A program made the position numbers and the translations under genes. The notes beneath the pieces were generated by a model. The model saw only the letters and a list, made by a program, of their open reading frames with translations. It was not told the origin of the DNA and did not search any database. A stretch of DNA of 47,566 bases, taken from positions 1 through 47,566 of the IMG/VR virus record IMGVR_UViG_3300002098_000055, one strand, 5' to 3'. Shown piece after piece: positions 2,655 to 40,684 of this stretch. Source of the stretch: a virus. Position 1 is the first letter of the stretch. Each line of letters begins with the position of its first letter.

Positions 2655-2657
2655 TCG

Positions 2658-3695: not shown

Positions 3696-3704
3696 TGTTC
3701 ATTC

Positions 3705-5348: not shown

Positions 5349-5357
5349 ATTAGTTTC

Positions 5358-7527: not shown

Positions 7528-7556
7528 AGTATATCCCTGCGTGTGTAGTCACACAA
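7528..7556 (-). promoter_or_regulatory. Candidate sigma70-type promoter for the TerS-like/fibre operon
   Basis: Minus strand reads TTGTGT-17 nt-TATACT, followed by an AGGA RBS and the ATG at 7500. Confidence 0.35.
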
Positions 7557-24502: not shown

Positions 24503-24988
24503 TCACAATAACGCGCGTTTAATCCAACCCTTTAGGTACTTTTCTTGCGACGGTTTTTTAAAAACTAACGCTAAATAGTACCGGCACGTCGCAACTCTAA
24601 ACGTGTCGTGCAAGCGTATCGTTCTAATATTATTAATCGCTTGCAGTGTACGTGTGCCTATGTCGCCGTCAACGTCAACACTAAAAATTATAGGCACAAA
24701 TGTATTCAAACATTCTTGGACCATTCGGGCTGCTGTTACTTGACCTGCGTGCACCGCAAACCTGAAAATTAAATTAGCGGTCGTTTGGTCTTGCACTAAC
24801 GAGAGCTTTAACGGATTCCAAAAATCCCGTGTATAAATTTCAATCGCCCGCTCAACCGTTAAGTTTTTTATGTCCTCACCTGGATACGACCTCTTTGAAA
24901 TCCCGTATTTCGTCTCCCGCCCCGCATCATCTGGGTCGTTAGAATAACCGCCCTCTATTTCAATAATTTCCTTATCAAATACGGCCAT
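24503..24988 (-). CDS. Endolysin, glycoside hydrolase family 108-like with C-terminal peptidoglycan-binding region
   Basis: The N-terminal motif EIEGGYSNDPDDAGRETKYGI matches the GH108 signature EGGY.N.P.D.GG.T..GI. Confidence 0.8.
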   Translation of the reverse strand: MAVFDKEIIEIEGGYSNDPDDAGRETKYGISKRSYPGEDIKNLTVERAIEIYTRDFWNPLKLSLVQDQTTANLIFRFAVHAGQVTAARMVQECLNTFVPIIFSVDVDGDIGTRTLQAINNIRTIRLHDTFRVATCRYYLALVFKKPSQEKYLKGWIKRALL

Positions 24989-24997
24989 GGCTCATCC

Positions 24998-26086
24998 TCA
25001 ATATTTAATATACGCCCACAAATTAACCGAGGGCTGAATGACATTAAACGCTGTTTGTGTCCCGAATCCCGAAATCCCACCCGATGCACGAGTTTGTAAA
25101 GAGTACCCCGCCGCTCCGTTAATGACTCCCGTTGTTGGACTGGAGTATACTAACTGATTTGAAACATCGTGAGTGTGATTGTATAACTCGGACGCCGCCA
25201 TCAGGTGCGTTTCTTCGCCGCCCGATTGACCGAGATAGCCGCCCAGTGTGGTAGTGCCAGTTGTTCCGTTTGCGCCAACGGGGACATTGCGACTAAGGTT
25301 TGGTAAATTAAAAAGCGTTGAGCCGTTACCGTTACCCCAAACATAAAACACCATGGAACCCGTACCGCCCGCCGTTGCCGCCGCGCTCATCTGTACAGTT
25401 GTGCTTGTTAAAATTGTAGTGATATACGTCCCGGCGGGTATTCCTGCGCCTTCGATTTTTGCGTTAGGCCCAGCGGATAAATTAGCCGTACTAGTGACCG
25501 TGAGCGTTGTCGAACTGTTGGTAGTCGACGCTGTTTGTGTGACTGTTAGTGCATCATATAAAGCCGCATATGTTGTACGAGATATCGCTGTTCCGTCGCA
25601 TTTTAGCGAGCCGGTTAATCCGTTAGGGCCAGCAAACCACTGTACCGTTCCAACTTGCACCATACTCTGGCTTACAGGTATCCAATTACCATCCGCGCCG
25701 GGTACTGATGTGTTAGACGCTACTTGGCTTTCCCAGAGCAAATACACACCTGAATATGCACCGGATGCGGGGGAATAAAAAACCCGAGCGTAAAGGGGAT
25801 AGCTAGCTGGGCCACCCACAGGTGGAGAACCTGTTGCGGGCGCTACCCAAGGGGACGCGCCGTACGTTTGCAGGTTTTGCAAAGCGGTTGTTATGTCAAG
25901 CATCAATTGATTAAATTGTCCACGGGGTATGGGTAGCGCAGGAGCACCGCCGGATAAATCCAGCTCATAGTTTGACGTAAAACCATACGGGTAATTAACC
26001 GTACCCGTTGAGCTGCCCGTGTTGCTAATCGGTGTGACGGTTCCCGATTCAGCAAACGGGTATAAAAAATAAGGGTTCGCTGCCAT
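24998..26086 (-). CDS. Tail fibre protein with tail-collar domain interrupted by an inserted module
   Basis: Collar motifs are WFAGPNGLTGSLKCDGTAISRTTYAALYDAL and STLFNLPNLSRNVPVG ... GGEETHLMAASELYNHTH. Confidence 0.8.
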   Translation of the reverse strand: MAANPYFLYPFAESGTVTPISNTGSSTGTVNYPYGFTSNYELDLSGGAPALPIPRGQFNQLMLDITTALQNLQTYGASPWVAPATGSPPVGGPASYPLYARVFYSPASGAYSGVYLLWESQVASNTSVPGADGNWIPVSQSMVQVGTVQWFAGPNGLTGSLKCDGTAISRTTYAALYDALTVTQTASTTNSSTTLTVTSTANLSAGPNAKIEGAGIPAGTYITTILTSTTVQMSAAATAGGTGSMVFYVWGNGNGSTLFNLPNLSRNVPVGANGTTGTTTLGGYLGQSGGEETHLMAASELYNHTHDVSNQLVYSSPTTGVINGAAGYSLQTRASGGISGFGTQTAFNVIQPSVNLWAYIKY

Positions 26087-26096
26087 TTAATGCTCC

Positions 26097-26753
26097 TTAA
26101 ACTATCTCAACACCCACCGGGCGCGGTAGTAATTTTAAATCTGTAATCACACCTAACAACGCCGCCGGAAAATCAGCGGTCGTGAAAGTGTACGAAACCG
26201 TCATATCTAAATTATCAACTATATAAATCGCGCCGGTAAACCCAATGTTACTGGTCGCGCATAAGTGATTTAAAAACGCGTTAATATCGATAATATCGCC
26301 AAGATTACATAAATCAAAATACGCAAGACGTAGGACAAACTGTTGCTCAGCTAGCGTTAGAACATACGCCGCGCCGTCGGTAGAAAAGTTACCGCTCCCG
26401 GGGTTAGCTATTATCGTATCGCCAAAGTTTTTATATGTGTTTATTAACGTTGGAGGCGTTGTATATGCATTAAAACCCCACAACGGTTTACCTGACGCGT
26501 CGCCCCCGAGCGGTATGTAGAGCGGAATATCTAAGATAATGCACCAAACACATATCCCAAACAGGGCTATGTCAGCCGATGTTAAATCAAAAATCCCAGT
26601 CGTGTATCCGTTCCAAAACTCTATAAAATTAACATCAAGCCAGCTCTGCTTAGCCTGTATCAAGCCCGAAATATTCGGGGAGTTCTGGTACTGCCACAGT
26701 ATCGCGGGCAGTACGTTCATTTCCTCGGGATATGTAAATTGCTCTATTTGCAT
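26097..26753 (-). CDS. DUF2612-like baseplate/fibre-associated protein
   Basis: The N-terminus is LPAILWQYQNSPNISGLIQ. It lies directly after baseplate J. Confidence 0.55.
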   Translation of the reverse strand: MQIEQFTYPEEMNVLPAILWQYQNSPNISGLIQAKQSWLDVNFIEFWNGYTTGIFDLTSADIALFGICVWCIILDIPLYIPLGGDASGKPLWGFNAYTTPPTLINTYKNFGDTIIANPGSGNFSTDGAAYVLTLAEQQFVLRLAYFDLCNLGDIIDINAFLNHLCATSNIGFTGAIYIVDNLDMTVSYTFTTADFPAALLGVITDLKLLPRPVGVEIV

Positions 26754-26755
26754 AA

Positions 26756-28651
26756 TTACACCAAGTTCACGATGATATTATTAGCCGTTATTGTGGCTAT
26801 CTGATACGGCGCTATGGCAATCTCAGTAGGCAATGTTGGGGATGTTGAGCCTGTTGATATATACAAACTCTGCACGTATATACCCGGATACTGACTAGTA
26901 ACAGCCCCCGCAAGCTCAAACGCCGAAACGTTTTGACCGACCGTAAGCCCTGCGATACCACTAATTCCGCCAGTTGCATACGCTACAATTGCATCTTGTA
27001 CCGCTGTGACTGCATCTTGTACCGCGCCCAAGAGCTTGATATTTACTAGCACGTTTATAGTAACCGACGCTGCGATGTCATATAACACTGTCATTAGCTG
27101 GCCACTGTAGGGGACATCCACAATTGTGCTTATTGGCGTACCTGCAAAAAACGTTAAACTTTGCGCACCAGACGCCGTGGCGGCTATAGTCATAGTTATG
27201 CTTGTAGAGCTAGGCTTTGTTGCAACTCGCGCCCCTGCGGCAATACCTGTGCCTTTAATCAATGCGCCAACGGAAAATACTGAAGTGTCCGTTAATCCAG
27301 TCACAGTGATAGAGCTAGCGGTAAGTGTGCCTGTTTGTACAATTTCCCCGTTGCTAAACGCACAGCCCGCGCTCTTTTTAGCGACCATCGCTTGTGCAAC
27401 GTTTGACGGTAAACCCAAGGCGGCTGTGATTGTATTATTAACTGTATCCCACCCGGAAACGGGGGTGACGATTACAGTTAGTGAGTTAACGGGCACGGGT
27501 ATCGGCCCGGTTTGGAGGGCTTGAAATAATACGGGGTCTAGCGTGCCGCTTGCAGGGATTAAAACATCGCCAAGCGTTTGGAACACATATCCATTTGATG
27601 ATGCTTGCGAACCGCCCGGCACTACGATACAAAACGATAAACTTTCTGCACCGGATGCCGTGGCGGCTATTGTCATAGTTATGCTCGTAGAGCTGGGCTT
27701 TGTTGCAACCCTCGTACCGAGCGCAATACCTGTGCCTTGGATGCCAGCGCCCACCGCAAACAACGTGGTGTCAGTTAGCCCCGTCACAGTGACAGAGTTT
27801 GCCGTAAGTGTGCCTGTTTGCACGACTGCCGGAGTCCCTGTAATTACTGCTGCCACTTCTGAAGTAGTGCCTTGGTCTGCAACAACTGAATCGTTAACGC
27901 AAACATAAACTGATTTTGCAACCATTGACACGCCGTCAATTGTCTGCGTTGTGTTTGCAATGTTTTCAAGCAAAGTCACACTAGACGCGCTTGTAGTGCG
28001 TAAAATTTCCGCTGTAATCGCTTGAGCTGTTGACGCCCCTTGAGTCGCCAGTGTATTTAATCTGTATTGACGAGCGTCTAAATCTGATTGCAACGTCCGG
28101 CCAACGGTCGCCGCTGCGGAATTAGTTACAGTTGTCCACCCCAGCACCGCGGTTACAATATCAGTGAGGGCGTTAACGGCGCACGGAATCGGGCCGTAAA
28201 CCACTGAGTTAAACTGCACCCCCGTTGCAACGCCGTTTGCCGGTATCGTGAGCTGTGTTAGCGTGTAAAACTGGTTTAAATCACCTGAGCCGGTTTCAGC
28301 CACAATCGAGCCTGCCGGGATTACAGTCCCCGGCGTGCCGGTAATCGTTGCATACACTACAGATTGCAGAGCGGGCAAACGACCATAAGGGTTTGTTAAA
28401 GACATAATTGCATCAAGAAACACCCCGCCCGCAAGGTTAGGGTTTATCTGATTCGCTAGTTGCGCGTTATTATCAGCGAGCGCAATACGCGCCTGTACTT
28501 CGGCTGATATAAGCATACCTTGAGGTGTGTTAGGTGTGACTATTAAATCCGCACCAAACACGCCCCGATATTCTGCTTCGACATCCGCTTGTATTGCTGC
28601 CGCGTCTACTGTGATAACGCCCGTCTCATCGATGTAATTATATACTGCCAC
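26756..28651 (-). CDS. Baseplate J-like wedge protein with internal duplication
   Basis: Baseplate_J-type segments (ATITGTPGTVIPAGSIV ... GPIPCAVNALTDIVTAVLGW) occur twice. Each is followed by the ~60-aa inserted module. Confidence 0.8.
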   Translation of the reverse strand: MAVYNYIDETGVITVDAAAIQADVEAEYRGVFGADLIVTPNTPQGMLISAEVQARIALADNNAQLANQINPNLAGGVFLDAIMSLTNPYGRLPALQSVVYATITGTPGTVIPAGSIVAETGSGDLNQFYTLTQLTIPANGVATGVQFNSVVYGPIPCAVNALTDIVTAVLGWTTVTNSAAATVGRTLQSDLDARQYRLNTLATQGASTAQAITAEILRTTSASSVTLLENIANTTQTIDGVSMVAKSVYVCVNDSVVADQGTTSEVAAVITGTPAVVQTGTLTANSVTVTGLTDTTLFAVGAGIQGTGIALGTRVATKPSSTSITMTIAATASGAESLSFCIVVPGGSQASSNGYVFQTLGDVLIPASGTLDPVLFQALQTGPIPVPVNSLTVIVTPVSGWDTVNNTITAALGLPSNVAQAMVAKKSAGCAFSNGEIVQTGTLTASSITVTGLTDTSVFSVGALIKGTGIAAGARVATKPSSTSITMTIAATASGAQSLTFFAGTPISTIVDVPYSGQLMTVLYDIAASVTINVLVNIKLLGAVQDAVTAVQDAIVAYATGGISGIAGLTVGQNVSAFELAGAVTSQYPGIYVQSLYISTGSTSPTLPTEIAIAPYQIATITANNIIVNLV

Positions 28652-29018
28652 GTATAGCCCCCGTTCCCGCGTTAGTGCGTATGTTCGCAGTGTAAAAAAA
28701 TGTATTACCGCTTTGTGTAGTTACTAGAGATAGTACTTCAAGTACCCCATTAACCGCTAGCCACGCTGATGTTAGCGCGGCGTTAAATGCATCGACTAAC
28801 GGCACGCCGATAAACAGCGTTGTAAAATACGGTATGCCTTGCTGTGTGTTTAAAACAATCTCACCCAGTCGCGTTTTAGCCGTTTGTGCGCAGTTTTCGA
28901 GTATCGCTTGTAGACCAGTGCTTAAACTGATGTTGCCTAAGTTATCGAGATAAATATCGTTATATGCAACCCCCGGTTGTGTGCCGTTTATATTCGCCGA
29001 GATAGTTAAAGAAGGCAT
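28638..29018 (-). CDS. Baseplate wedge protein (gp25/W-like)
   Basis: Size and position between the spike and J fit. The pattern LQAILENCAQTAKTRLGEIVLNTQQGIP is of the W type. Confidence 0.5.
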   Translation of the reverse strand: MPSLTISANINGTQPGVAYNDIYLDNLGNISLSTGLQAILENCAQTAKTRLGEIVLNTQQGIPYFTTLFIGVPLVDAFNAALTSAWLAVNGVLEVLSLVTTQSGNTFFYTANIRTNAGTGAIRGSI

Positions 29019-29025
29019 ATCGTCC

Positions 29026-29613
29026 TCACGGTATGTTAACTGCGTGTATGGTTCCGGTTGCTAAGATGCTACCGTTAATATTCATCACAGTTAAAGGGTT
29101 GCTCATGTCAATACTGATAGCCGTTTGACTTATAGATATAGTCACAGTTCCGCTATCGTTTTGCAAAACAGCATTTGACGCGTCAGCACTAGCTATCGTG
29201 TCCAAACCTGTCATTGTGTCCGGGAAAAATACTCCGTCTGAAAACTGTTTAACCCGTGCAGTATTGGGGGCGCATTGCGAGTAACTAGATAGGAAATTGC
29301 TGATATCCCTATCATTAGCTAACACCCATCCCATGTTGCCCGCAACCAATGGAAAACTTAAACGAAATCCTCCGCCCCCATACACAAAGACTGGGATTGC
29401 GGCCAGCTGGGGGCGGGAGTATTGCGCCCCATCTGTGCCTACAATATCGATTAATAGCTGTACACTAGCGCGATTTGTGTCTCTATCGTAACTTAAAACT
29501 TTAGCGGGTAACATGCCGTTAACATTCTGTAGCATCTTATTGTATGCAAACGTTACAGCTCCCGCGAGCGTGTCATTATTGGCTGGGTCTAACGACGGGT
29601 TGTTATTTGCCAT
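29026..29613 (-). CDS. Baseplate spike/V-like protein (Gp138 N-terminal domain-like)
   Basis: LPAKVLSYDRDTNRASVQLLI is typical of the Gp138_N OB-fold start. The internal ATG at 29613 avoids a 74-nt overlap. Confidence 0.6.
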   Translation of the reverse strand: MANNNPSLDPANNDTLAGAVTFAYNKMLQNVNGMLPAKVLSYDRDTNRASVQLLIDIVGTDGAQYSRPQLAAIPVFVYGGGGFRLSFPLVAGNMGWVLANDRDISNFLSSYSQCAPNTARVKQFSDGVFFPDTMTGLDTIASADASNAVLQNDSGTVTISISQTAISIDMSNPLTVMNINGSILATGTIHAVNIP

Positions 29614-30472
29614 TGGACGAAATCCTCGCAGCTTCAGCAACGTAATAAAACGGCACGTCGCGGCTTGCAACATCAAAATTTAATTTATATATCACATAAT
29701 TCCCGTTTGCCGCTGGGTATTGAACGCTATTAATCTGTAACCCTGCGCCCAACCGTGTTTGATTATCTAGCAACATCTTAACTTTAATGCCTTGCTCTGT
29801 AAATTCCGGTATCCCAATCATGCCGGTTTCCGCTGATAAAACGCGCGTTATGCCGCGTAAGGGAGCCATGGCGTTTTTAACGATAAGTGTATTATCATCA
29901 ATGTAAGCGTTAATCCCGCCTATCCCGTTAAGTACCTCGACTTGATTTAGCGCCCCACCTCCGAAACTGTAGTTTCCTATGTTTTGGTTTGTCGCTTGGA
30001 AATTTAAAATCGTTTGTGTGTCTTGAGATATGCCTTGGCTAACAGACTCTAGCGACGCAATGCCGCCGTAATTCCGAGTTATGATATTACCTTTTAAGAA
30101 ATTACCTGTAAGACAACTCAACGTTATAGACACATCAGGAGGCTGGGATACTACGGCTTTTGTGACATTGCCCCTGTATATTGCGGTCACCCCAGTAGAC
30201 ACGCGGCCCGCTTCTACAATAACAATTTTAGGCGTGCGGTTTAAATTATACGGGGAAACCTCAGTCAATATAAAATCTTGTGTGTCTTTATCTATATTAG
30301 ATATAGTCACAGTACATTCGTTCTGCAAAGCGTTGGCATATTTAGTACCCGTCGCGCGTAGGTTCATTGGCGATGCATACGTTTTTAATTTGCCGTTAAC
30401 GCCAATGCTTATTTTAATTATTCGGGGGTCAAGTTCTTGCGCCACTGAGAACCCCTTGAATGTAATCTGCAA
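29603..30472 (-). CDS. Baseplate hub-like protein (289 aa)
   Basis: Assigned by position between the tape measure and the spike. No firm motif. Confidence 0.4.
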   Translation of the reverse strand: MQITFKGFSVAQELDPRIIKISIGVNGKLKTYASPMNLRATGTKYANALQNECTVTISNIDKDTQDFILTEVSPYNLNRTPKIVIVEAGRVSTGVTAIYRGNVTKAVVSQPPDVSITLSCLTGNFLKGNIITRNYGGIASLESVSQGISQDTQTILNFQATNQNIGNYSFGGGALNQVEVLNGIGGINAYIDDNTLIVKNAMAPLRGITRVLSAETGMIGIPEFTEQGIKVKMLLDNQTRLGAGLQINSVQYPAANGNYVIYKLNFDVASRDVPFYYVAEAARISSNGK

Positions 30473-30791
30473 ACGACAAACCCGCTAGGTCGGCGGGGTA
30501 TGCATACACAAAAACTAAATCTTTGTTGAACCTGTCCCAAAATGGGTATTCTTCTTGTGAATCGTTCGAACCAATAAAAGTAAAATTACCAAGTGCGGTT
30601 TCGAGATACGCGTAAGGCAGTATAGGAAACCCATTCACTGCGCGTTGCCCTGAGATTAACACGACGTTATTAGCGACAATTGATACGGCCATGATTCCGT
30701 TACAGTCTTGTAACTGTACGTCAAAAGCGTTTACGCCTAGTTGTAATGATAGCGTTTGATTTGGGATTGCCTGTAGGGGTATTATTTCCAT
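30429..30791 (-). CDS. Tail/baseplate assembly protein (120 aa), function unknown
   Basis: ORF within the tail module. Confidence 0.5.
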   Translation of the reverse strand: MEIIPLQAIPNQTLSLQLGVNAFDVQLQDCNGIMAVSIVANNVVLISGQRAVNGFPILPYAYLETALGNFTFIGSNDSQEEYPFWDRFNKDLVFVYAYPADLAGLSFADYIQGVLSGART

Positions 30792-30793
30792 GA

Positions 30794-31357
30794 CTACCTC
30801 GCCATTTTCTGTAACAGGCCATACCCGATGGACGTTTGCGGGCCACTCGCAGCTGTTGTGTTTTGCGTTCCGCGGTCTACGGTATTAGAGTTTTTAGCTT
30901 TTTGAGGTGTTGTTGTGTACTGAGCCGTGACCATGATTACTTCTTTAAGACTGAGCGCAAGTGTTATTGTGTTTGCAATTGTCGTATCTTCTTCGTGCGG
31001 CATTTCTTGGATTAACTGGTTTTGATATGTTCCTGAGCGCGTTTGTACTATTAATAACGTGCCGTTTAAATACAACTGCTTAACCTCGTCGTATGTGTCT
31101 TTATACGTTGCTGGCGTTAGTATCATAGACAACTGGATTTCAACGGGTAAAACGACGCGATGGTCTGTAACCACCGCCCCGTCTTCAATCGGATGCTCCA
31201 TTAATTTTGAAGCTTCTTTTACCACGGCTTTTATAGGTCTTGCGTTCCTAAAAACTTGGTCGTATTCCTGAGAGTACACAGCAACTTTATCGTTGTTGTA
31301 CAGCGACGGGATAAACTGACTTAAAAGGTTTGCTACGTTTCCCGCGCTAATTCCCAT
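30794..31357 (-). CDS. Tail/baseplate assembly protein (187 aa), function unknown
   Basis: The ORF overlaps the tape-measure stop by 1 nt. Confidence 0.5.
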   Translation of the reverse strand: MGISAGNVANLLSQFIPSLYNNDKVAVYSQEYDQVFRNARPIKAVVKEASKLMEHPIEDGAVVTDHRVVLPVEIQLSMILTPATYKDTYDEVKQLYLNGTLLIVQTRSGTYQNQLIQEMPHEEDTTIANTITLALSLKEVIMVTAQYTTTPQKAKNSNTVDRGTQNTTAASGPQTSIGYGLLQKMAR

Positions 31358-32538
31358 TATTTATGTACCCCGTTGTCAACTTGACTTATCAATTGGCTAA
31401 TAGCAAGTTTATCGATAAAAGCACTAACAACCCCGTGGCCGTCTGTTGCTGCGGTGTTAACAGTCACATCGCCTATATTCACAGTTACAGGCCCGGGGCC
31501 GTTTCGAGCAAACGAATTTTGCGTTAAAGGCTGACCTGCTAAACCGCCGATAATTGCTTTGTCAAAAATGCTAGAGCCTTCGCCCCCGTACCCCAATAAT
31601 TTAACGGCTTTAGCCCCTAGTTTTAAAGGAAGTTCTTCTATCACTCCTAAAAGACTGGGATTTCCGGCCTTGTAGTTTCTTGCTTCGTCTTTAGAAAAAG
31701 CGCGTATCCCGGAGATAGCGGTCAAAGCCCCTACGGCAATAGCCAGGGTCGGGTTTAAACGGATTAAAGCTAACGATAAAACCCCTACTCCGGCGGCCAT
31801 GGTCACAAATGCATCTTTCACAAAATCTTTATGATTTATGGACCAATTTAAAGCTTTTGTGAACGAAGGGAGTATTGGGGTAACTAATTCTTTATAGAAA
31901 TTTTGGTATGCTCGCGTTGCGTCGTATAGCGCAGCATCAAATTTTCTTGTGGTTTCGGCTTGTTCTCTAGTCACAGTTCCAAGTTGCTTTTGTTGTGTGA
32001 TTGTCGCTTCTACTTCGCGCCGCCCCTGTTGCAAAAACAAAATAGTAGACTGGTCTAACCCAAGAGATTTGCCGTAATTCTTAGCCTGTAGCGGATTTAA
32101 TTTATTAAACGTCTCTGCTAGTTTTGGTAAAGCTTTTAAAGCAATATCGTTAGTTGTTCCAAAATGTGACGCAAGCGAACTTAACGACGATTGAAAACCC
32201 GACGCGCTCCCGCCTATCCGTTCAACAGCGGAACCCCACGCGTCAAGCGCAGATACATCGACGTTTAACTCACGCGCGGCTTTTCCTACTTCTCTAATGC
32301 TCGCAATAGCGCCAGAGGCCCCGCTTAACAAGGCGTGGAACGAAGCAAACCCTGCAAATAAACCGACTGCGGATTTTAAAACGTTATCAAACGAATGTTG
32401 TACCGTATCGCCCGCACGTCCTAACTTTTCAAACTCATTCTCTAGGCTTTTAACTTGCGACTTTGTATCGTCCAGACCTTTTTTTAATTGATCCGTTTCG
32501 AGTTTAACTAAAATATATAGAGATTCTAATACGCTCAT
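31357..32538 (-). CDS. Tape measure protein (393 aa)
   Basis: It follows the chaperone pair. The N-terminus is coiled-coil and Gly/Ala-rich hydrophobic segments are present. Confidence 0.7.
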   Translation of the reverse strand: MSVLESLYILVKLETDQLKKGLDDTKSQVKSLENEFEKLGRAGDTVQHSFDNVLKSAVGLFAGFASFHALLSGASGAIASIREVGKAARELNVDVSALDAWGSAVERIGGSASGFQSSLSSLASHFGTTNDIALKALPKLAETFNKLNPLQAKNYGKSLGLDQSTILFLQQGRREVEATITQQKQLGTVTREQAETTRKFDAALYDATRAYQNFYKELVTPILPSFTKALNWSINHKDFVKDAFVTMAAGVGVLSLALIRLNPTLAIAVGALTAISGIRAFSKDEARNYKAGNPSLLGVIEELPLKLGAKAVKLLGYGGEGSSIFDKAIIGGLAGQPLTQNSFARNGPGPVTVNIGDVTVNTAATDGHGVVSAFIDKLAISQLISQVDNGVHK

Positions 32539-33058
32539 TTTTTAGTTGATTCCATCGCCAAGAATTCGTTATATTTTTTAACCGCTATCACTTCCCACAT
32601 TATATACGCGTCTTCGACGCTATATACCGTTTTTAATTCGTTGAGGGTTGCGAGTCGCTCGACGAGGATAATTGCGAGAATGCTTGTAACGTTTTTGCAA
32701 GTAACTCCGGCAGCTTGTTCGTTGTCAACCCACTTAGTAAACCGGACAGGCCGCCATCTGCTAAAAAACTTGTGTTGTACTCAACCATTGATTTAAATAG
32801 TTTTAGAGTCGTTTCCCAGTCTTTAACGTGATTGTTAATTAACTCAGGCGATATTAATTTAATAGGCGGGCCGGATTTAACAGGCACAGAAACGTAGCTT
32901 AAAACCTCCGCTAAGCTCTCTTTATACACTTCAAAATCGCCAAGCTTTGGCAGCATGGAAACGGGTAACTTGCTCATGAGCACCGTGCCTTCCCATGCTG
33001 GGAATTTTGATAACGTGTAAGTTTTACCGCCTAACTCTATATCTTTTGTCTCTAACAT
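32535..33058 (-). CDS. Predicted -1 frameshift extension product of the tail assembly chaperone (~173 aa)
   Basis: T_TTT_TTA sits in frame at 32768-32762. The -1 frame is open from there to the TGA at 32537-32535, which overlaps the tape-measure ATG. Confidence 0.45.
32633..33058 (-). CDS. Tail assembly chaperone (141 aa, frame-0 product)
   Basis: It lies between the tube and the tape measure and contains a slippery heptamer. Confidence 0.65.
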   Translation of the reverse strand: MLETKDIELGGKTYTLSKFPAWEGTVLMSKLPVSMLPKLGDFEVYKESLAEVLSYVSVPVKSGPPIKLISPELINNHVKDWETTLKLFKSMVEYNTSFLADGGLSGLLSGLTTNKLPELLAKTLQAFSQLSSSSDSQPSTN

Positions 33059-33504
33059 TAAAAGCCACCTATGCGCTGTTCAAAACTGAAGCTATATGTT
33101 TTTGTTTTGAGCCTTCCGGTACTTTGCGCACCGCTAAACGGGAAACCGTCAATAATCACACCATTAACTAGCTGCACAACGTTACCCGCAGGATACTGTA
33201 TGTTAAGTGTGATTATGTCTTGTGCGCCCGTGCGACCGCGCCCGGGTCGGTTAGCTTCAAACAAAATTCCTAAAATCCTGTCGTTAACAGTGCTCGGTAA
33301 TACGCTCATAGTAAATTTAATCGGATTGGCTTTTGACCAAGTAATTAAATCCCCGTTAATTCCCATAGCTGAATCCGCAATCTGTAACACCGGCACGTCA
33401 ATTGCGTCGGTGTCATCGGAAAACTGGTTTAACGTAACGCCCGCCGGATACGTGTTGGACGCTAGCAAGCTAATTTGAATCCCAAACGCTGAAATATTTT
33501 GCAT
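33058..33504 (-). CDS. Tail tube protein (DUF3277-like)
   Basis: The 148-aa ORF lies immediately after the sheath. Confidence 0.6.
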   Translation of the reverse strand: MQNISAFGIQISLLASNTYPAGVTLNQFSDDTDAIDVPVLQIADSAMGINGDLITWSKANPIKFTMSVLPSTVNDRILGILFEANRPGRGRTGAQDIITLNIQYPAGNVVQLVNGVIIDGFPFSGAQSTGRLKTKTYSFSFEQRIGGF

Positions 33505-33514
33505 TACTAGCTCC

Positions 33515-35494
33515 TTAAATTAAAATGTCTGTACCAGACACAAAACGGATAACATCGTCTTTGCTGTATACCAGAGTGTACGCTGCTGTGTACGCGGTAG
33601 CAGGACTTACAGGCGGTACGATTTGGCAGTCTATCCAGTAGCCAACGTCTTGCACTTGGTAGTACGCGTAAGGGTCGTTGGTCACCGAGGTTATATACGA
33701 TTTTTGCGTTGTCGTGAGGGCTTTATTAACACTGATAGAGCCGTTCAGTAACGCCAGATTTATAGGCGCCTGAATCGCGGTTAATAACAATCCTTGACCT
33801 TGTGTGTTCGCTGGTATCTGAGACAGACCTAAAAACAGATTCATGATTTGTACAGCGATTGCGTCTTTTAACCACATCTCGTTAGTGTACGATGTCATAT
33901 CCAGCGGGCTTGTTGATGTGCCTTGCAAAACGCCTGTTTGATAAAAATTAAGAGCTTGCCCGGCTTGCTGCGTATTACCATAGTAATTTACTGCTACAGC
34001 ATCGTATTGATTCGCGGCTGCATCGGTGGTCACCAACGGCGTTAAGTTAGTGAACGGGCCTTGAAACATGTAATTCTGTGCACTGTTCGGAGCTGTGTAA
34101 TCTGTAGCCGCAAGTACCATTGTCGGTATCTGCTCTGGATATTCGTTTAATATAAACGTAAGGACGACAGTAGCCGATGCACTGGCTGCCTGCGATAACG
34201 TCACTACGCCCGTAGCCGTATTAATTGCTGTAATTGTAGTAACCGGAGGGCTTGCAGGAATGCCAGCGCCAGACACGATCATTCCCACCGCTAACGCGCT
34301 GATGTTGCTAACGTTCGTTAATTGAGTAGAGCTGCTCGCGGTAGTTGCCGTAACGCTGATTGAATTACCTGAAAGCGTTAACGCTGTACCCGCGTAAGTA
34401 CCTAGGCCGCCAACGTCGGCTGACCACGCCGCGTAGTTGCTTGACGTAACAGGCACACAAAACATATATGAGTTGTTTTGAGTAATGTTCCACGCTGCTG
34501 CGGCTACCGCATCGGTTAACGACAACGATAAGTTATTCAAGAACAGGAATGAACCGAAATTATTAGATGCCGCTGCTGAGCTTGTAAGCGTCTGAGTTAC
34601 TGTCTCAGCTCCTAACCCGCTTGAAGTAATCGCGCCGCTCACGTAATTACCAAAAGAATCATAAGTAGCTGCGGGCAACCAACCGAGGTAACTTAAACCT
34701 GTGATATCTGTTCCCGCAGAACCCGCTTGAACTGATATTGTAGCGGGCGTTTGTGTTGAACTTACTACACCGCCGGTAAACACGAACTGGCCGTTACCGT
34801 TCACTGTTACAGTACACGCTGAGAAATTCGTGTTGCCATTTGTACGTATGATTTTTTGCAGTATTGCTGCGATTTGGTCGTATCCTGTAACTGCAAAAGC
34901 AAGCGTGGGAGTACCGGAAGCAGTAGCGGCAATTGACAGTGTAATACTTGTACCACTCACAATTGTAGCAATGACCGTATTAGCCGCAATCCCCGTACCT
35001 GTGACACTCATACCCGGCACTAATGCTGCGGTACTAGTTAACCCTGTGACTGTTATTGAGCTGCTTGTGGTCACGCTAGGCTGTGAGCTACTAAACGGGA
35101 TGTTTGTAAACGTCCCGACAATACCCGCAACCGTCAAGCCCAGAGAACCGGTTGTAACCGCATTCCAAACGCTAAAATCCGCTGGGACGTTAGACACAGA
35201 AGAAACGACGCTGGGTGCGCTGTTTTCTGTGGTCCATCGCGCAAACTGTAACGCCTGAGGTACTGTAATTAATTTACTAATAAACGAAAAATAAAACACC
35301 GCTCGAAGGTATTCTTCGGATCCTGTGCCGAAATAACTACCTACGGCCGCTGCTGTCTTAAAAGAAACGAACGTTTGAGGCGGTACAAGCGTACTTCCTG
35401 TAAAAATCCTAGCAACCAGTGACCGCTGGGCGACTACACTAGCGCCCCCCACTCCTGAAGTAATGTCTACATAGCGAGTTATAGAAATTGACAT
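33515..35494 (-). CDS. Tail sheath protein (DUF3383-like) carrying two inserted modules
   Basis: It is a large ORF upstream of the tube, with N-terminus MSISITRYVDITSGVGG. The conserved N- and C-terminal parts flank the insertions. Confidence 0.65.
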   Translation of the reverse strand: MSISITRYVDITSGVGGASVVAQRSLVARIFTGSTLVPPQTFVSFKTAAAVGSYFGTGSEEYLRAVFYFSFISKLITVPQALQFARWTTENSAPSVVSSVSNVPADFSVWNAVTTGSLGLTVAGIVGTFTNIPFSSSQPSVTTSSSITVTGLTSTAALVPGMSVTGTGIAANTVIATIVSGTSITLSIAATASGTPTLAFAVTGYDQIAAILQKIIRTNGNTNFSACTVTVNGNGQFVFTGGVVSSTQTPATISVQAGSAGTDITGLSYLGWLPAATYDSFGNYVSGAITSSGLGAETVTQTLTSSAAASNNFGSFLFLNNLSLSLTDAVAAAAWNITQNNSYMFCVPVTSSNYAAWSADVGGLGTYAGTALTLSGNSISVTATTASSSTQLTNVSNISALAVGMIVSGAGIPASPPVTTITAINTATGVVTLSQAASASATVVLTFILNEYPEQIPTMVLAATDYTAPNSAQNYMFQGPFTNLTPLVTTDAAANQYDAVAVNYYGNTQQAGQALNFYQTGVLQGTSTSPLDMTSYTNEMWLKDAIAVQIMNLFLGLSQIPANTQGQGLLLTAIQAPINLALLNGSISVNKALTTTQKSYITSVTNDPYAYYQVQDVGYWIDCQIVPPVSPATAYTAAYTLVYSKDDVIRFVSGTDILI

Positions 35495-35500
35495 TATATT

Positions 35501-36109
35501 TTACACTCCGTATATGTTTTGAACTATTGGGGGCGTAATCTTAGGCGTTGTCGACGTTCGGACGTTTAAGTACGTTAATACGAAATCGAACGACGGGCTT
35601 GCCTCGAAATTATCGCGGTCATCTACAAAATATGGGTTTGTGACATCTGTGATTCGTAGTATACCTACACCCTGTGCGTTTAGTATAGCCCTAGTTGCGT
35701 CCGACTGCATAAGACATGCGACTTCGTTAACTAAATCCGAAGCCGTGGGGATTGTTAAATCGCTGGGGTTCTGAAGAACGAGCGCAGATACTTGAAACGC
35801 CGTTTCGTAATATTGTGACTCTGAATGTATAAAACTGGATGTGCCTGAGTCCCACACATCCTCGCGGCCCAGAAAACCATAGCGACGGTTATAAATCTTA
35901 GTAAAGAATACCATCGGGGCGGTAGGGATACCCTGTTGCGTTGGCTGGTTCGACTGCTTGACAACGGTTGTTGTAAAACCGTCAGCAACCAACCCCGCTT
36001 GGATTACAGGTAAAAATAATTGTATCAGGGTGTTATCTGTTTGATTAGCCACCGTTAACCCCCCGTCGCTACGACTAGAACGCCCTTCCATCCATCTTGT
36101 GCGTACCAA
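35501..36109 (-). CDS. Tail completion/terminator-region protein (start uncertain; GTG at 36052 avoids overlap)
   Basis: The ORF lies between the neck genes and the sheath. GTG at 36052 sits 3 nt after the upstream stop, behind a G-rich RBS. Confidence 0.5.
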   Translation of the reverse strand: MVRTRWMEGRSSRSDGGLTVANQTDNTLIQLFLPVIQAGLVADGFTTTVVKQSNQPTQQGIPTAPMVFFTKIYNRRYGFLGREDVWDSGTSSFIHSESQYYETAFQVSALVLQNPSDLTIPTASDLVNEVACLMQSDATRAILNAQGVGILRITDVTNPYFVDDRDNFEASPSFDFVLTYLNVRTSTTPKITPPIVQNIYGV

Positions 36110-36420
36110 TCATTATTAGACTCGACTTGATATCGTTTGCCGTTGTACGTCAATTGGTCGCCAGACACATTACGCTGGACATCAAGTAAATCATTTGACG
36201 TGTAGAACGTAGAGTAATCTTTTTGTAAATCTAGTCCGTAAGTTTCATATAGCTGCCTTGGGACCGCTTGAAAACTTCCGTACATTGTGACCGCAGACGC
36301 GTAAGTAGTAACGTCTTGCCCAACGGCATTTGGGGTGCGTGATACGTATTGATAGTATTGCACGACCTGCTTAGCTATAAGCGTAAGCGCCATGTTTAAT
36401 ATGTTCGAACCCGGAATCAC
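36055..36420 (-). CDS. Head-tail joining protein (121 aa)
   Basis: Assigned by position. Confidence 0.5.
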   Translation of the reverse strand: MIPGSNILNMALTLIAKQVVQYYQYVSRTPNAVGQDVTTYASAVTMYGSFQAVPRQLYETYGLDLQKDYSTFYTSNDLLDVQRNVSGDQLTYNGKRYQVESNNDWYAQDGWKGVLVVATGG

Positions 36421-36935
36421 GATTCGCTCGATATTTCGTAAGACACAGACGCAAGCATAAGCCCCGTATCAACAAGCGGTTTGGTAATTGAGCGGGCTTG
36501 AGTTTTATTCAAACGCCCGCTGTGATTGCGTCTCGCTAGACGCGCGTCAATTGTACGTTTCTTTAAAGCGGGTGAGTATACTTGTGTGATTGAATGCTGG
36601 ATATCCCCAACCGCGGCAGTCCCAATGCCTTCTAAAACTTGTGTGACTGTGGCTTTACCATTCACAACAGCTTTCATCCCGCGCTTACCGATGTTCGCCC
36701 ACTTTGTTTCATTGTTCGCAATCGCAGGACGAATAAACGGACGTGCGGGTATGTTGTCAGTGGGGTTTCCGTATTCGTTTTGCGCTGCTACGGATGCGAC
36801 TGGCGTTTTATGCTCGTCATCATAACGCGCACTGGGAAACCAGCCGATTCTAACCGCTAGTGGTTTCATCTCAGAAATCGCCCGCTCAATTACCGTATCG
36901 CTATCGCGTTTTATAGTCACTGAACCCATGGCCAC
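36417..36935 (-). CDS. HK97 gp10-like neck/tail-component protein
   Basis: Motif VASVAAQNEYGNPTDNIPARPFIRPAI. Confidence 0.6.
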   Translation of the reverse strand: MAMGSVTIKRDSDTVIERAISEMKPLAVRIGWFPSARYDDEHKTPVASVAAQNEYGNPTDNIPARPFIRPAIANNETKWANIGKRGMKAVVNGKATVTQVLEGIGTAAVGDIQHSITQVYSPALKKRTIDARLARRNHSGRLNKTQARSITKPLVDTGLMLASVSYEISSES

Positions 36936-37414
36936 ATCCCATTATCTGAGCCTTGAAAACCAGCTCGGACATAAGAGCCGCCAATGTACGAACCGCCCAC
37001 GCTTTGAATCTGGAGCATTGACAGCAACTGTTGACCGAACGGACTCGTACCTAACCACCACTGGAATTGATTCGGGTTTGGCGGGGGTGTCACAGTCACA
37101 TTAACTTTATCAATCGTAGCGTTTTGCATCTGATAGGGCACAGTACCCGGCGCACCGCCAGAACCTGTACCAAACCCGTTACCTGTGTTTATTAAATTCG
37201 TCAGATAGATTAAATGGGACATCATCAACTGGAGCGCGTACTCGCGCTGCGTGCCGTTTATGTACCCAAAATCCGCACTGCTCATGTAATTAGTAGCGTT
37301 ATCCCAGTACCGTTGTAACGTGGCTTGTGGGTAATTTGTAGAATTAGAATACAGCGCGAACTGAGGGTTTGCTATATAACCCGCATAGTCAAAAACCAAC
37401 GTCGCGTATGTCAT
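36917..37414 (-). CDS. Head-tail connector protein (DUF4054-like)
   Basis: Assigned by position and size. The resemblance is weak and judged by eye. Confidence 0.45.
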   Translation of the reverse strand: MTYATLVFDYAGYIANPQFALYSNSTNYPQATLQRYWDNATNYMSSADFGYINGTQREYALQLMMSHLIYLTNLINTGNGFGTGSGGAPGTVPYQMQNATIDKVNVTVTPPPNPNQFQWWLGTSPFGQQLLSMLQIQSVGGSYIGGSYVRAGFQGSDNGMWPWVQ

Positions 37415-37807
37415 CTAGAGCCTCGCTTTTTTCTGTTTGTACGTTGGAGTCTCTTGGCCTAGCTCTTCGTTTTTCTCGAAATCTTTAGGCGTTAGGGGTG
37501 CGCTGTTGTCTTTAGCGCTCATGCTCGCCGCTTTCTTTTCAACGTCACCTAGTTTCTTATCGACAACAATATATCCCGCTTCGACTTGCTGCCTAAACGC
37601 CAACATGCCCTCGAGTAATTCCAATTCTTCATCTGTGACTTTAGTCACAACTCCGCGTGGGGTATCCATGCCTTGTGGGTTTTTTATGCCGTGCCCGCCT
37701 TTAATCTCAATCTTGCGTATTACGCGCGATAAGGCGTTAGGGTCTGTTTTTGGGGCGTAAACGGGGAACGTGTTTCCGCAAGTCATCGTTGAGTAAATAA
37801 AAGGCAT
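37415..37807 (-). CDS. Hypothetical structural-module protein (130 aa)
   Basis: Its stop codon (37415-37417) directly abuts the ATG of the next gene (37414). Confidence 0.55.
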   Translation of the reverse strand: MPFIYSTMTCGNTFPVYAPKTDPNALSRVIRKIEIKGGHGIKNPQGMDTPRGVVTKVTDEELELLEGMLAFRQQVEAGYIVVDKKLGDVEKKAASMSAKDNSAPLTPKDFEKNEELGQETPTYKQKKARL

Positions 37808-37947
37808 TTCCTAATTCTCCATTGAATTTATAGTATCTATAATATACCATATGAGGGCAAAGTCTAGGGTAGCTCCTGAAAAACTCGCCTCATCCTCGGG
37901 TCGACTTTGCACCTACCTCGGATGATTAACTATAAGGATGGATAGCC

Positions 37948-38130
37948 ATGACCGAAATCACGATAGAACAATTTATATCTCAAGAAGTAAGAATCAGATT
38001 ATTACAAGAAAACTTAAAACGTATAGACGAACGGTTTGATAAACTTACATCGCTACTTATAAAAATAGGCTCTGGTTTATTTGTGACTATTATCGCGCCG
38101 GTGGCGCTACATTTGCTTGGATGGATATAG
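37948..38130 (+). CDS. Small protein with N-terminal coiled coil and C-terminal TM helix (XhlA/holin-like architecture)
   Basis: The sequence ends ...RIDERFDKLTSLLIKIGSGLFVTIIAPVALHLLGWI. An AAGGA RBS precedes it. Confidence 0.45.
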   Translation: MTEITIEQFISQEVRIRLLQENLKRIDERFDKLTSLLIKIGSGLFVTIIAPVALHLLGWI

Positions 38131-38801
38131 GCGCAATGAAAACTTGTACTAAGTGTGGCGTTGAGAAGGCGGTTAGTGAGTTTAGTGTTAACCGGTCGAC
38201 TAAAGATAATTTAAATTACTATTGCAGGTCTTGCGCCAAACAGAAGTTTAAAGCGTGGAGCGAAAACAACGTTGCTCAAGAAAAAGAGCGTTGTAAACAA
38301 CACTATCTAAGCCATTCTAAAGAAAAATACGAGTACAATAAAAATTGGATTGCAAATAATCGAGATAAAGTACTAGCGCAAAAGAAAAGGCACTATCTAA
38401 AAAATAAAGAAAAAATATTGGTTAAAACCGCGCAATACTATAGAAATAATTTTGAGAATCTAGCGAAAGCTAAAAAAATTTGGAACCTTAACAACTCCGA
38501 TAAAATGAAGGCGTATTTTGACGATTACTGGAGAAGCAATAAAGATAAGTACTACCAAAGAAACGCCAACCGAAGGGCTTTTAAGTTGCAAGCGTGCGTA
38601 TCTTGGGCGGATTTAGATAAGATTAAAGCTATTTATGCAGAAGCTCAAAGGCTAACAGAAATTACTGGCCTTGTTCATCACGTAGACCACATCATCCCCC
38701 TTCAATCTAAATACGTTTGTGGGCTTCATCACGAAAACAATTTACAAATACTCACTTGGTATGAAAACTTAACCAAGAGTAATAAATTTACCCCTGGCTA
38801 A
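38121..38801 (+). CDS. HNH homing endonuclease (likely start 38136, MKTCTKCG...)
   Basis: The HNH core is HHVDHIIPL ... HHENNLQILTWYENLTKSNK. The N-terminal zinc ribbon is CTKCG...CRSC. It is AT-rich and lies on the strand opposite the surrounding late genes. Confidence 0.8.
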   Translation: MDIGAMKTCTKCGVEKAVSEFSVNRSTKDNLNYYCRSCAKQKFKAWSENNVAQEKERCKQHYLSHSKEKYEYNKNWIANNRDKVLAQKKRHYLKNKEKILVKTAQYYRNNFENLAKAKKIWNLNNSDKMKAYFDDYWRSNKDKYYQRNANRRAFKLQACVSWADLDKIKAIYAEAQRLTEITGLVHHVDHIIPLQSKYVCGLHHENNLQILTWYENLTKSNKFTPG

Positions 38802-38823
38802 GTTATTTACTAACTGTACAAAT

Positions 38824-39942
38824 TTAAATACCGCTGTAGCGCACCACTGCGAATGGACGCTTGCACATTACGCCGGCAGTTGCACAAGAATAGTCTTCTT
38901 CATACGCTTTGGCCAGCTGCATGACGCCCAACACTTGAAACTTAGCAGGAACCATCTGAATAAACGTCTGGCCACCGTCAGTACTCATGTCGTCGACTTT
39001 ATCGGCAAACATGTAGAACACGTTCGCGCTTCCGTTTGCATTGTTCAACTGTGGAGCTGAAACAACACGACAACGTGGGTACGCGCCTGCAAGCCAAGTG
39101 CGAACAGAGATACCGAAATCTGAAGTTACAGTCAGATAATCCACCGCGTCGGTTGCAATCGCTAGGGTTAAATCTACTTTTTCAGGGTCGATAGTATCTT
39201 GTGACTGAGTTCTTAAAGCCACAATTGCTACGCGGATGTCGTTTGTAATTTCCAAGAATGTCTTGTTCGCCCAAAGGGTAGAAGTTCCCGCGGCATTCAG
39301 AGCTACGGTGGTATAATTGCCTAGACCGGGGTCGTTAAGAAAACCGTAGGTGTTGTTATTGCCGGAGTTAAACCCAACGAAACCAACAGAGTTACGAATA
39401 ATCTCAAGTGCAAGAGCGGCCGCCTCGCGCTTCATACCCGAATCGTCTACGCGCAAACGTGCAGCACGAGCGGACTCTAATACGCCAACTTTCATACCTT
39501 CTTCAAACCGGACTACCGTTCTGTAGTTGAAGTTAGTATTCCAAGATGATAATGGGACGTTAGTGTAATCGCCATAAACTTGGGACGTACCTGTGCGCTC
39601 CAATAGACCTTGGACGACCTGTTCGTCTTCCCACGAGCCGGTTGTCATAATACCAACGATATCGTCAATTTTACGAGCCGCTGTAATTACAAACACAAAG
39701 CCGGGTAACCAGTTTTGCAAAAACTGTACTGGCGTTCCTATGCTTCCTTGCGTAACTGTAGGCGGTAAGCTGTCCATTGCCATATTAGCCATAGCTTTAT
39801 GACCGCGGTACATTTGGTCAACAACGTGCCGGTTCAGGTTAATACCCAAGCGAGGTAACGCCTCGTATTCTTTATGGTCAAAATTTGCCAACGCTCTTAC
39901 TTGTCGCGCTAGCAAATTCGATTTAATTTCGGTAGCTCTCAT
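38824..39942 (-). CDS. Major capsid protein (DUF2184-like)
   Basis: The 372-aa ORF follows the scaffold and decoration genes. Its flanks suggest strong expression. Confidence 0.7.
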   Translation of the reverse strand: MRATEIKSNLLARQVRALANFDHKEYEALPRLGINLNRHVVDQMYRGHKAMANMAMDSLPPTVTQGSIGTPVQFLQNWLPGFVFVITAARKIDDIVGIMTTGSWEDEQVVQGLLERTGTSQVYGDYTNVPLSSWNTNFNYRTVVRFEEGMKVGVLESARAARLRVDDSGMKREAAALALEIIRNSVGFVGFNSGNNNTYGFLNDPGLGNYTTVALNAAGTSTLWANKTFLEITNDIRVAIVALRTQSQDTIDPEKVDLTLAIATDAVDYLTVTSDFGISVRTWLAGAYPRCRVVSAPQLNNANGSANVFYMFADKVDDMSTDGGQTFIQMVPAKFQVLGVMQLAKAYEEDYSCATAGVMCKRPFAVVRYSGI

Positions 39943-39958
39943 TTTCTATATCCTTATG

Positions 39959-40684
39959 TTATGCAGGGACGGTTAGCGTTGGAGTCATAGTAATAACAGC
40001 CAAACCAGCACCAGAAACCGTGTAATAATCTACGACCGCTTGAGCGAATGATTTACCAGCCGGTAAGTTGTCGCCAGACGGAGTAAAGGTTAACGTAACG
40101 GTTCCACTTGCGGTAGCCGCTGCGGATATAACAATAGAGGTATTAGCAGTCACAGAAACTACAGTAGCGTTTGCTGGAATACCTGTACCTGATACGGGTT
40201 GCCCTGCAAAAACGCCAGATGTGCTCGCCATTGTTACCGTTGTGCTTGTGCTTGTTGTAGTACCGGGCAGTGTAAACGGGGCACTTGAAATCGTAGATAA
40301 CGCACCAGTGGTGTTATCAAAAATCACGGTGTCCCCGATTGCCGCTGCTGCTGGTAAAGTCACAACAAAACTACCCATCGTAGCGCATTCGACCGCTGCG
40401 TAATTTGGAACTGTTAAAGTGGGAGCCAGAGGCGCGCCACTTGTACCAAATAATGCTTGGTCTTTAGGGTCGACTAAAATACCGGCAAACGGCAGGCTTG
40501 CGGATGTTTTACCAGCCGCACAAAAACCCTGAGAAGTTACAGAGCACGCGGTGGCCCCAATAATATTATAAGCCGCTGAAGCGGAGTTAATTGTATAAGA
40601 CTCGGCTCTGGTAGGGCCGTCGGTAAATTGTTCGCCGGGTACGCCAAAACCCTGCGCTAGTGATACAGTTGATTGAAAACCCAT
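39959..40684 (-). CDS. Capsid decoration/cement-like protein carrying one inserted module
   Basis: It lies between the scaffold-like gene and the capsid gene. The composition is Gly/Ala/Thr-rich. Confidence 0.5.
   Translation of the reverse strand: MGFQSTVSLAQGFGVPGEQFTDGPTRAESYTINSASAAYNIIGATACSVTSQGFCAAGKTSASLPFAGILVDPKDQALFGTSGAPLAPTLTVPNYAAVECATMGSFVVTLPAAAAIGDTVIFDNTTGALSTISSAPFTLPGTTTSTSTTVTMASTSGVFAGQPVSGTGIPANATVVSVTANTSIVISAAATASGTVTLTFTPSGDNLPAGKSFAQAVVDYYTVSGAGLAVITMTPTLTVPA

Follow-up and report, generated by a model that had tools for sequence, protein, structure and literature searches.

The stretch of viral DNA analyzed here, 47,566 nucleotides of the IMG/VR record IMGVR_UViG_3300002098_000055 (hereafter, the window), encodes six copies of one protein module in four virion proteins: a capsid cement protein, the tail sheath, a baseplate wedge/J-like protein (hereafter, J) and a tail-collar fiber. 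The homology of the six copies was confirmed and lies far beyond chance. The module is almost certainly an autonomous insertion cassette, because its excision in silico restores the family matches of its host proteins, because sheath homologues fall into length classes according to the number of modules, and because its presence varies gene by gene among syntenic relatives. For the findings as a whole, the best explanation appears to be a portable, outward-facing decoration cassette that serves weak multivalent adhesion, and we favor it with moderate confidence.

The preliminary description of this DNA had listed six segments. Their translations were as written there, and their amino acid and nucleotide coordinates agree with the minus-strand open reading frames (ORFs). 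A hidden Markov model (HMM) built from the six copies was run over the whole window, translated in six frames and divided into 781 ORF pieces: it found these six copies and no others, and the next-best match was an antisense artefact (E ~0.005–0.1). The alignment is also significant when the protein in question is left out of the profile. Such leave-one-protein-out profiles regained the omitted copies with E-values well below 1e-3: 7.5e-12 for the cement copy, 5.8e-12 for the collar copy, 4e-17 and 2.6e-6 for the sheath copies, and 3e-14 and 7.5e-11 for the J copies. The shared core proposed earlier was thus recovered, but its length of 57 amino acids proved too short. The unit extends past the core by an N-terminal strand ('xGTLTxxS'), and its total length of about 64–70 amino acids agrees with the length steps of about 70 amino acids in the sheath homologues and with the tandem period of 63–73 amino acids found elsewhere (both described below).

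The pairwise protein identity among the six copies is 30–58%, except for the pair in J (81%); at the nucleotide level the corresponding values are 43–57% and 78%. Because the nucleotide identity is so low, the copies are old and selected sequences and not a recent repeat, and recent duplication as their origin is ruled out. The closeness of the two J copies is consistent with an intragenic duplication, as judged from their sequences.

All four host genes, and with them all six copies, are on the minus strand, and the Pfam and PHROG assignments bear out the identities first given to them, including their differing roles. The cement/decoration protein (39959..40684; 241 amino acids) matches Phage_cement (PF22758; E217 gp24/Pam3 gp6) and phrog_3645, as well as E217 gp24 in the PDB (8FRS, E 8e-6). 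It carries copy 1 at 40085..40276 (residues 137–200, with the core at 143–200; HMM E 1.4e-21). The tail sheath (33515..35494; 659 amino acids) is of the E217 gp31 type (DUF3383, PF11863; phrog_205) and carries copy 2 at 34880..35077 (residues 140–205; E 1.4e-23) and copy 3 at 34154..34363 (residues 378–447; E 3.5e-21). J (26756..28651; 631 amino acids) matches phrog_6 (baseplate wedge, E 1e-38), its orthologues in relatives are annotated as Baseplate_J, and it holds copy 4 at 27629..27823 (residues 277–341; E 4.6e-25, and 7.5e-11 in the leave-one-protein-out search) and copy 5 at 27146..27337 (residues 439–502; E 3.9e-26). The tail-collar fiber (24998..26086; 362 amino acids), which matches Collar (PF07484) and tail collar/fiber PHROGs, contains copy 6 at 25346..25546 (residues 181–247; E 2.1e-22). 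Its gene is directly upstream of an ORF at 24503–24988, whose counterparts in the syntenic relatives are GH108 endolysins.

When the residue ranges given above were excised in silico, unbroken Pfam matches were restored in all four hosts, which is the behavior of an insertion domain that had been supposed at the outset. For the cement protein, the Phage_cement match rose from 42.8 bits over profile positions 1–135 of 146 to 52.4 bits over positions 1–145 (cut-off 27 bits). For the sheath, the DUF3383 match changed from 260.5 bits in three stretches to 288.7 bits in one stretch (1–489 of 493) after the removal of both copies. J gave no match to Baseplate_J (PF04865) when intact, and 29.7 bits (E 5.2e-7; cut-off 21.1 bits) after excision. 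The collar fiber had been described as having its Collar motif split by the module. Indeed, copy 6 interrupts the Collar domain between 'YAALYDAL' and 'YVWGNGNGSTLFNLPNL': the intact protein matches in two stretches (32.0 bits; best 1–35), and the excised one matches contiguously over positions 1–57 of 57 (38.7 bits; cut-off 24). Similarly, copy 4 interrupts J at 'ITGTPAV|IVVPGGS'.

The comparison with orthologues lacking the insert leads to the same picture: module-free sheaths and cement proteins are shorter. The module-free cement orthologues have 171–173 amino acids, as against 241 in the window. In the sheath alignment, copy 3 is a clean block of 68–70 amino acids that is absent from the sheaths with no module, between 'ALTLS' and 'EYPEQIP', and the stretch of copy 2 is missing in the homologues with no module or one. 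The relationship between sheath length and module count was examined using 120 sheath homologues, and it held with no exceptions: sheaths with no module have 509–521 amino acids, those with one have 576–597, those with two 648–686, those with three 715–727, and those with four 793–801.

We also compared ten syntenic relatives having the E217/Pam3-like gene order, three of them incompletely covered. The cassette is present or absent independently in each gene, and alternative insertion sites occur. With the module counts written in the order cement/sheath/J/fiber, the window has 1/2/2/1, and the relatives range from 0/0/0/0 (L001) to 1/4/0/1 (L006), with 0/0/0/1 (L010), 0/1/1/1 (L009), 0/3/0/1 (L003) and 1/2/1/1 (L008) among them. 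The cement copy of L008 is located at a site (residues 63–128) other than that of the window. Most copies group by insertion site across the relatives, which indicates that most of them are orthologous. The window cement copy, however, is 66–70% identical to a sheath copy of L002/L006, above most other copies, and the L008 cement copy clusters with sheath copies; these resemblances suggest, at the sequence level, that the cassette may occasionally have been copied between virion genes. The insertion site in the Collar domain is not confined to this lineage: cassettes occur at the same place in the relatives and in an unrelated collar protein, so that the Collar loop is a recurrent insertion site outside it. 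In that protein (P0267, 472 amino acids, from the representative search described below), the Collar match ends at profile position 41 and is followed by modules at residues 253–309 and 351–408.

In close relatives, the modules diverge at about the same rate as the scaffold (76–84% versus 81–82% identity). This equality argues that the modules are maintained by selection, and hypervariability is ruled out. As a separate observation, the J proteins of L002 (7624–9375) and L006 (17276–19027) are module-free and yet have 583 amino acids, as compared with 403–409 in the J proteins of the other module-free relatives; their extra length must come from a different insert in a comparable position. No close relative turned up in a genome scan that used the sheath protein alone. 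The identity of 55–58% between the sheath and its counterparts in Planctomycetota is a weak lead to the host.

The fold of the module was predicted with AlphaFold2, using copy 5 as the query and an alignment of 63 instances. The model is a six-stranded beta domain with a predicted local distance difference test (pLDDT) score of 93.5. In the model of the full sheath (pLDDT 89.7; predicted TM-score 0.86), both modules reach a pLDDT of about 95 (~95–97 for copy 2), and the best Foldseek match is the insert-free E217 sheath (8env_A, 504 amino acids), on which the scaffold superposes with a target TM-score (TMt) of 0.83. Direct-coupling analysis of 633 non-redundant instances recovered the beta1–beta2 and beta4–beta5 hairpins of the model, and gave no clean beta1–beta6 ladder. 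From the insertion behavior of the module, its N- and C-termini would be expected to lie close together.

The composition of the module is strongly biased. Among 904 instances, T accounts for 19.6%, S for 12.3%, G for 12.1% and A for 11.5% (together 55%), while D, E, K and R make up 4.5% and W, Y and H about 1%; there are nearly no aromatic residues beyond the core Phe. The conserved positions (G30, G35, G37, I38, P39, G41, T42, I44, S56, A59 and F69) are core or turn residues, with conservation of 97% for G30, 94% for G35, 82% for I38 and 84% for F69, and the signature loop reads GxGIPxGT. Along the strands, Thr/Ser-rich positions (e.g., 60, 62, 64, 66 and 68) alternate with hydrophobic ones such as L67 and F69.

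The preliminary description could not assign the module to a named family, and neither could we: a threshold as loose as E ≤ 10 yields no Pfam or NCBIfam match for any of the six copies, and in proteins that hold as many as 14 copies in tandem the repeat has no Pfam match either. One solved relative was found. A 63-sequence module profile searched against the whole PDB sequence set gave 8ECI as its sole match (E 1.2e-6, residues 14–73; E 0.013 with a 6-sequence profile), and the same entry is the top structural neighbor of the module model (8eci_1; query TM-score, TMq, 0.82; root-mean-square deviation 2.4 Å; 36% identity over 74 columns). The sheath model matches it as well, at 2.1 Å. This entry is gp7 of Arthrobacter phage Bridgette, a protein that cryo-EM places on the outside of the capsid, where its dimers surround the pentamers (bioRxiv 10.1101/2022.09.09.507160); the passages of the preprint consulted contain no name or definition of the domain. 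Gp7 and the module share the fold, the profile homology and the signature ...VGxxIxxAGIPAGTTIxxVxSGTSxTISAAAT..., and gp7 is an accessory protein of the virion surface, as the module would be. They differ in that the gp7 domain is the N-terminal part of a free-standing protein of 126 amino acids docking on the capsid, whereas the window module is spliced inside four structural proteins.

The other PDB neighbors in the Foldseek search are weak (E > 0.2): insertion barrels of endosialidases and tailspikes, N-terminal barrels of F1-ATPase, and the FCCH region of Uba1. An alternative view, which we regard as doubtful but worth weighing, is that the module is a divergent FCCH-like six-stranded barrel (E1_FCCH, PF16190) and hence no new family. 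FCCH-like barrels face outward on the tail tubes of the siphophages NBD2 (gp39) and MED16 (gp13) and decorate them (PMC13576161); like the module, they have about 70 amino acids and six strands, and they stand outside a tail polymer, as the sheath modules would. The hhalign alignment with NBD2 gp39 puts the motif in register ('GLAVGDFV...TSITL'), weak phmmer matches of the gp39 N-domain fall on module positions, S. pombe Uba1 (6o83_A) is a weak Foldseek neighbor (TMq 0.56), and 2 of 75 module-bearing proteins also match PF16190 somewhere along their length. On the other hand, the hhalign probability is 3.9%, the Foldseek E-value of Uba1 is 1.3 with the F1-ATPase and endosialidase barrels scoring equally, and PF16190 matches none of the six copies at E ≤ 10, nor, at E ≤ 1, proteins in which as many as 14 copies occur. 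Nor does it match any of eight module-bearing candidates scanned individually. A search for homologues of the NBD2 gp39 N-domain, from which an FCCH-like profile was to be built, found nothing. The FCCH-like link is at best a remote superfamily relation, and the module falls outside PF16190 itself. Sub-threshold matches to DUF7601 (E 0.03–0.9) overlap the modules in three proteins. No Pfam match to the immunoglobulin (Ig) superfamily or to fibronectin type III (FN3) was found on the module, and neither Ig nor FN3 structures appear in the list of Foldseek neighbors, which are barrels.

To chart the distribution of the family, 1.84 billion representative proteins were searched exhaustively, which yielded 4264 clusters (50% identity) at E ≤ 1e-3 and 608 when the threshold was tightened to E ≤ 1e-10. 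Tandem arrays contain up to 25 copies, the proteins reach 7693 amino acids, and the tandem period peaks at 63–73 amino acids. The named cellular contexts include a Geobacter flagellin/hook-associated protein, an FlgL-like protein of 1204 amino acids, PEP-CTERM, PATR/autotransporter-associated, YD-repeat and DUF11 proteins, and giant adhesin-like proteins of Planctomycetota and Verrucomicrobia. The window copies are 55–68% identical to copies in these giant proteins, that is, as close as they are among themselves. In viruses, the BFVD contexts comprise tail-collar proteins (including that of Bordetella phage PHB04), virion structural proteins and fibers of cyanophages (S-PM2, S-WAM2, Syn30 and ACG-2014e), Arthrobacter phage proteins, and one HK97-type capsid protein. 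These contexts agree with the weak matches of the module to the 'virion structural protein' families phrog_6005, phrog_5838 and phrog_10467. Two BFVD entries from 'uncultured Caudovirales phage', A0A6J5LBX6 (362 amino acids) and A0A6J5M3X9 (631 amino acids), are among the top viral structural matches and have exactly the lengths of the window collar fiber and J protein; the window may be the same as, or very near, an already deposited uncultured phage genome.

Three other searches yielded little. When the 6-copy profile was run through a word index of 5.8 billion proteins, five short fragments were all that came back, and megablast of the 15.7-kb structural region against the phage collection gave no match. 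The tblastn search with the consensus module against 50,697 phage records also gave no match; a control with the Bridgette segment traced this to the low-complexity filter, which hides the C-terminal half of the module from the search, and tblastn is therefore unfit for charting the module in isolate phages.

What these cassettes do for the particle can be proposed as follows. A cassette is spliced in frame into a loop of a virion protein, leaving the host fold undisturbed; it is gained, lost and duplicated, and would now and then be copied between virion genes. The barrels would point outward on the cement protein, the sheath, the baseplate wedge and the collar fiber. This orientation is suggested by the tolerance of 0–4 copies in a helical polymer, by the insertion into loops, and by the rule that sheath domains have an inner core and outer added parts; in E217, domain A of the sheath is such an added domain (PMC10329688). 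The E217 particle has 180 cement trimers and 204 sheath subunits (PMC10329688). With a similar stoichiometry, on the order of 1000 barrels per particle, coated with Thr/Ser and almost uncharged, would be expected on the exterior. They may then adhere weakly, multivalently and with low specificity to polysaccharides of the host envelope or extracellular polymeric substances (EPS), as proposed for Hoc, which fits the use of the same domain on the surfaces of bacterial flagellins and adhesins. The adhesion function itself, on polysaccharide-rich surfaces, is drawn by analogy and should be taken as tentative, being less secure than the decoration cassette as a whole.

Several points weigh against this proposal. 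The outward orientation is inferred from the above considerations. The conserved positions comprise no ligand-site signature or obvious conserved pocket, unlike typical lectin sites. The arrays of tandem copies in the giant bacterial proteins may serve only as spacers or stalks. Moreover, a profile scan of reference bacterial genomes found 37 related prophage loci in which the sheath carries no module and none lies within 10 kb, and the cassette is thus dispensable for the E217-like virion architecture.

A wider possibility, which we consider rather speculative, is that the module is a mobile domain unit circulating among the virion genes of one phage lineage and between phages and bacterial surface proteins, so as to coat the whole particle. 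It draws on the 66–70% identity between cement and sheath copies, the 55–68% identity to copies in giant bacterial proteins, and the multiple independent insertion sites. If this were true, the surface chemistry of the particle would be that of the flagella and adhesins of its hosts, and the coat could be a glycan/EPS adhesin, a glycosylation scaffold or a form of surface mimicry.

As for function, the main rival of the decoration cassette is reinforcement of the lattice, in which the barrels dimerise or bridge subunits and thereby stabilize the capsid, the extended sheath and the baseplate. One of the hosts is itself a cement protein, the modules are under purifying selection at the rate of the scaffold, Bridgette gp7 binds the capsid as dimers around pentamers (bioRxiv 10.1101/2022.09.09.507160), and the extended sheath of the E217 type is described as porous with few contacts (PMC10329688), where extra domains could matter. 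Nevertheless, sheaths of close relatives carry from zero to four copies at differing sites, which is hard to square with specific contacts. The domain is also used elsewhere, in tandem arrays that are monomeric and in the outer regions of flagellins, and no conserved surface patch is evident. Reinforcement is accordingly judged unlikely.

It is also conceivable that the barrels are a passive coat, that is, a hydrophilic Thr/Ser shield, possibly O-glycosylated, that masks or tunes the particle surface. The Thr/Ser-rich, charge-poor composition and the alternation of Thr/Ser with hydrophobic positions on the strands would suit such a shield, and the domain occupies the variable regions of flagellins, which are O-glycosylated in many bacteria. 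However, the argument is one of composition only, and no glycosyltransferase match was found among the window ORFs scanned (ten against Pfam and ten against PHROGs), which leaves the passive coat a distinctly improbable alternative. Finally, a compositional artefact of a Ser/Thr/Ala/Gly-rich linker that is no real domain, as the biased composition, the masking of half of the module by the BLAST filter and the antisense ORFs over every copy might suggest, is practically excluded by the clear position-specific conservation, the co-evolving hairpin contacts, the confident model, the solved counterpart at 2.4 Å and the sheath lengths that step in exact units of ~70 amino acids.

The antisense ORFs just mentioned form a side observation. 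A long plus-strand ORF (111–142 amino acids) overlies every module copy, at 25353–25778, 27126–27524, 27543–27908, 34830–35258 and 40068–40403, and one of them gives the weak match to the module HMM (E ~0.005). Most likely they result from the Thr/Ser/Ala/Gly-rich coding, since the strand opposite to it has few stop codons, and they are unlikely to be genes.

Among the remaining genes of the window, four large minus-strand ORFs at 1617–6926 (345, 345, 547 and 522 amino acids) have no Pfam or PHROG match and form two pairs of paralogues. The two ORFs of 345 amino acids share 52% identity. Those of 547 and 522 share ~32%, and in them the motif 'RTWTLPDATGT(I/V)' recurs in the manner of tail-fiber repeats. 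A further minus-strand ORF at 46601–47473, which would be the next minus-strand gene if the genome were circular, matches the C-terminus of a tail-fiber PHROG. The four ORFs at 1617–6926 are probably extra fibers or receptor-binding proteins, and none has the module. An HNH/endonuclease VII-like ORF (38121–38801, plus strand, 226 amino acids; phrog_1035 and phrog_7091) is oriented oppositely, separates the major capsid gene from the head-tail joining genes, and looks like a homing endonuclease; in relatives, HNH or Endonuclease_7 genes occur elsewhere in the structural module (12683–13288 in L005 and 3841–4467 in L009). The replication module (7549–8835, 9511–11700, 12588–14207, 15013–16101, 19016–19864 and 20294–22465) encodes a ParB-N-fused N6/N4 DNA methylase, a VapE-like/NrS-1-type primase-polymerase, a DEAD/ResIII helicase, a DUF2800 PD-(D/E)XK nuclease, a Gp2.5-like ssDNA-binding/annealing protein and a family A DNA polymerase. 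No tRNA genes were found in the window.

Neither Pfam nor NCBIfam contains the large domain family defined by the present results, which has at least 4264 clusters at 50% identity and one solved representative. This representative would allow thousands of 'hypothetical' regions in phage structural proteins, flagellins and giant adhesins to be annotated. The natural insertion points are ready permissive display sites for the engineering of E217/Pam3-like myophages, including therapeutic Pseudomonas phages. The occurrence of the domain on both virions and bacterial flagellar or adhesin surfaces poses the question of whether the surface chemistry exploited by the phage is also that of its host.

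That phage particles bear accessory decoration domains is known, whereas the present family is unnamed and has one structure in the PDB. In the literature searched, we found no description of internal insertion into the cement, sheath, J and Collar folds with a 0–4 polymorphism in the sheath. Among known systems, the E217/Pa193/Pam3-type myophages resemble the window in gene order and in the families of their proteins (Phage_cement, the E217 gp31-type sheath, Baseplate_J, Phage_Wedge1 and the GH108 lysin); the E217 sheath, with 504 amino acids, is without the cassette, and the structural neighbors are without equivalent inserts. The barrels of tailspikes and endosialidases (phi92/K1F endosialidase, KP34p57 and HK620) are likewise small barrels inserted in a host-recognition protein, and that of endoNF binds sialic acid. 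They have no sequence relation to the module, and their Foldseek scores (E 0.2–1.7; TMq 0.38–0.62) are not significant; the likeness is one of analogy only. A parallel in concept is provided by the Ig-like, FN3 and Big_2 decoration domains, such as T4 Hoc. These are small accessory beta domains on capsid, tail and fiber proteins, dispensable for assembly, and have been proposed to mediate weak adhesion to carbohydrate-rich surfaces; the concept of Ig-like domains as promiscuous phage decorations is reportedly that of Fraser et al. in 2006. The window module shares with them the promiscuous addition of a small accessory beta domain to several virion proteins. The Ig-like domains, however, are Ig sandwiches found mostly at termini, whereas the module is a six-stranded, barrel-like domain inserted in loops. 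The concept of phage decoration thereby extends beyond Ig-like additions at the termini and takes in a barrel spliced into the interior of proteins, which is tolerated in the sheath (0–4 copies), the cement protein, the baseplate wedge and the Collar domain.

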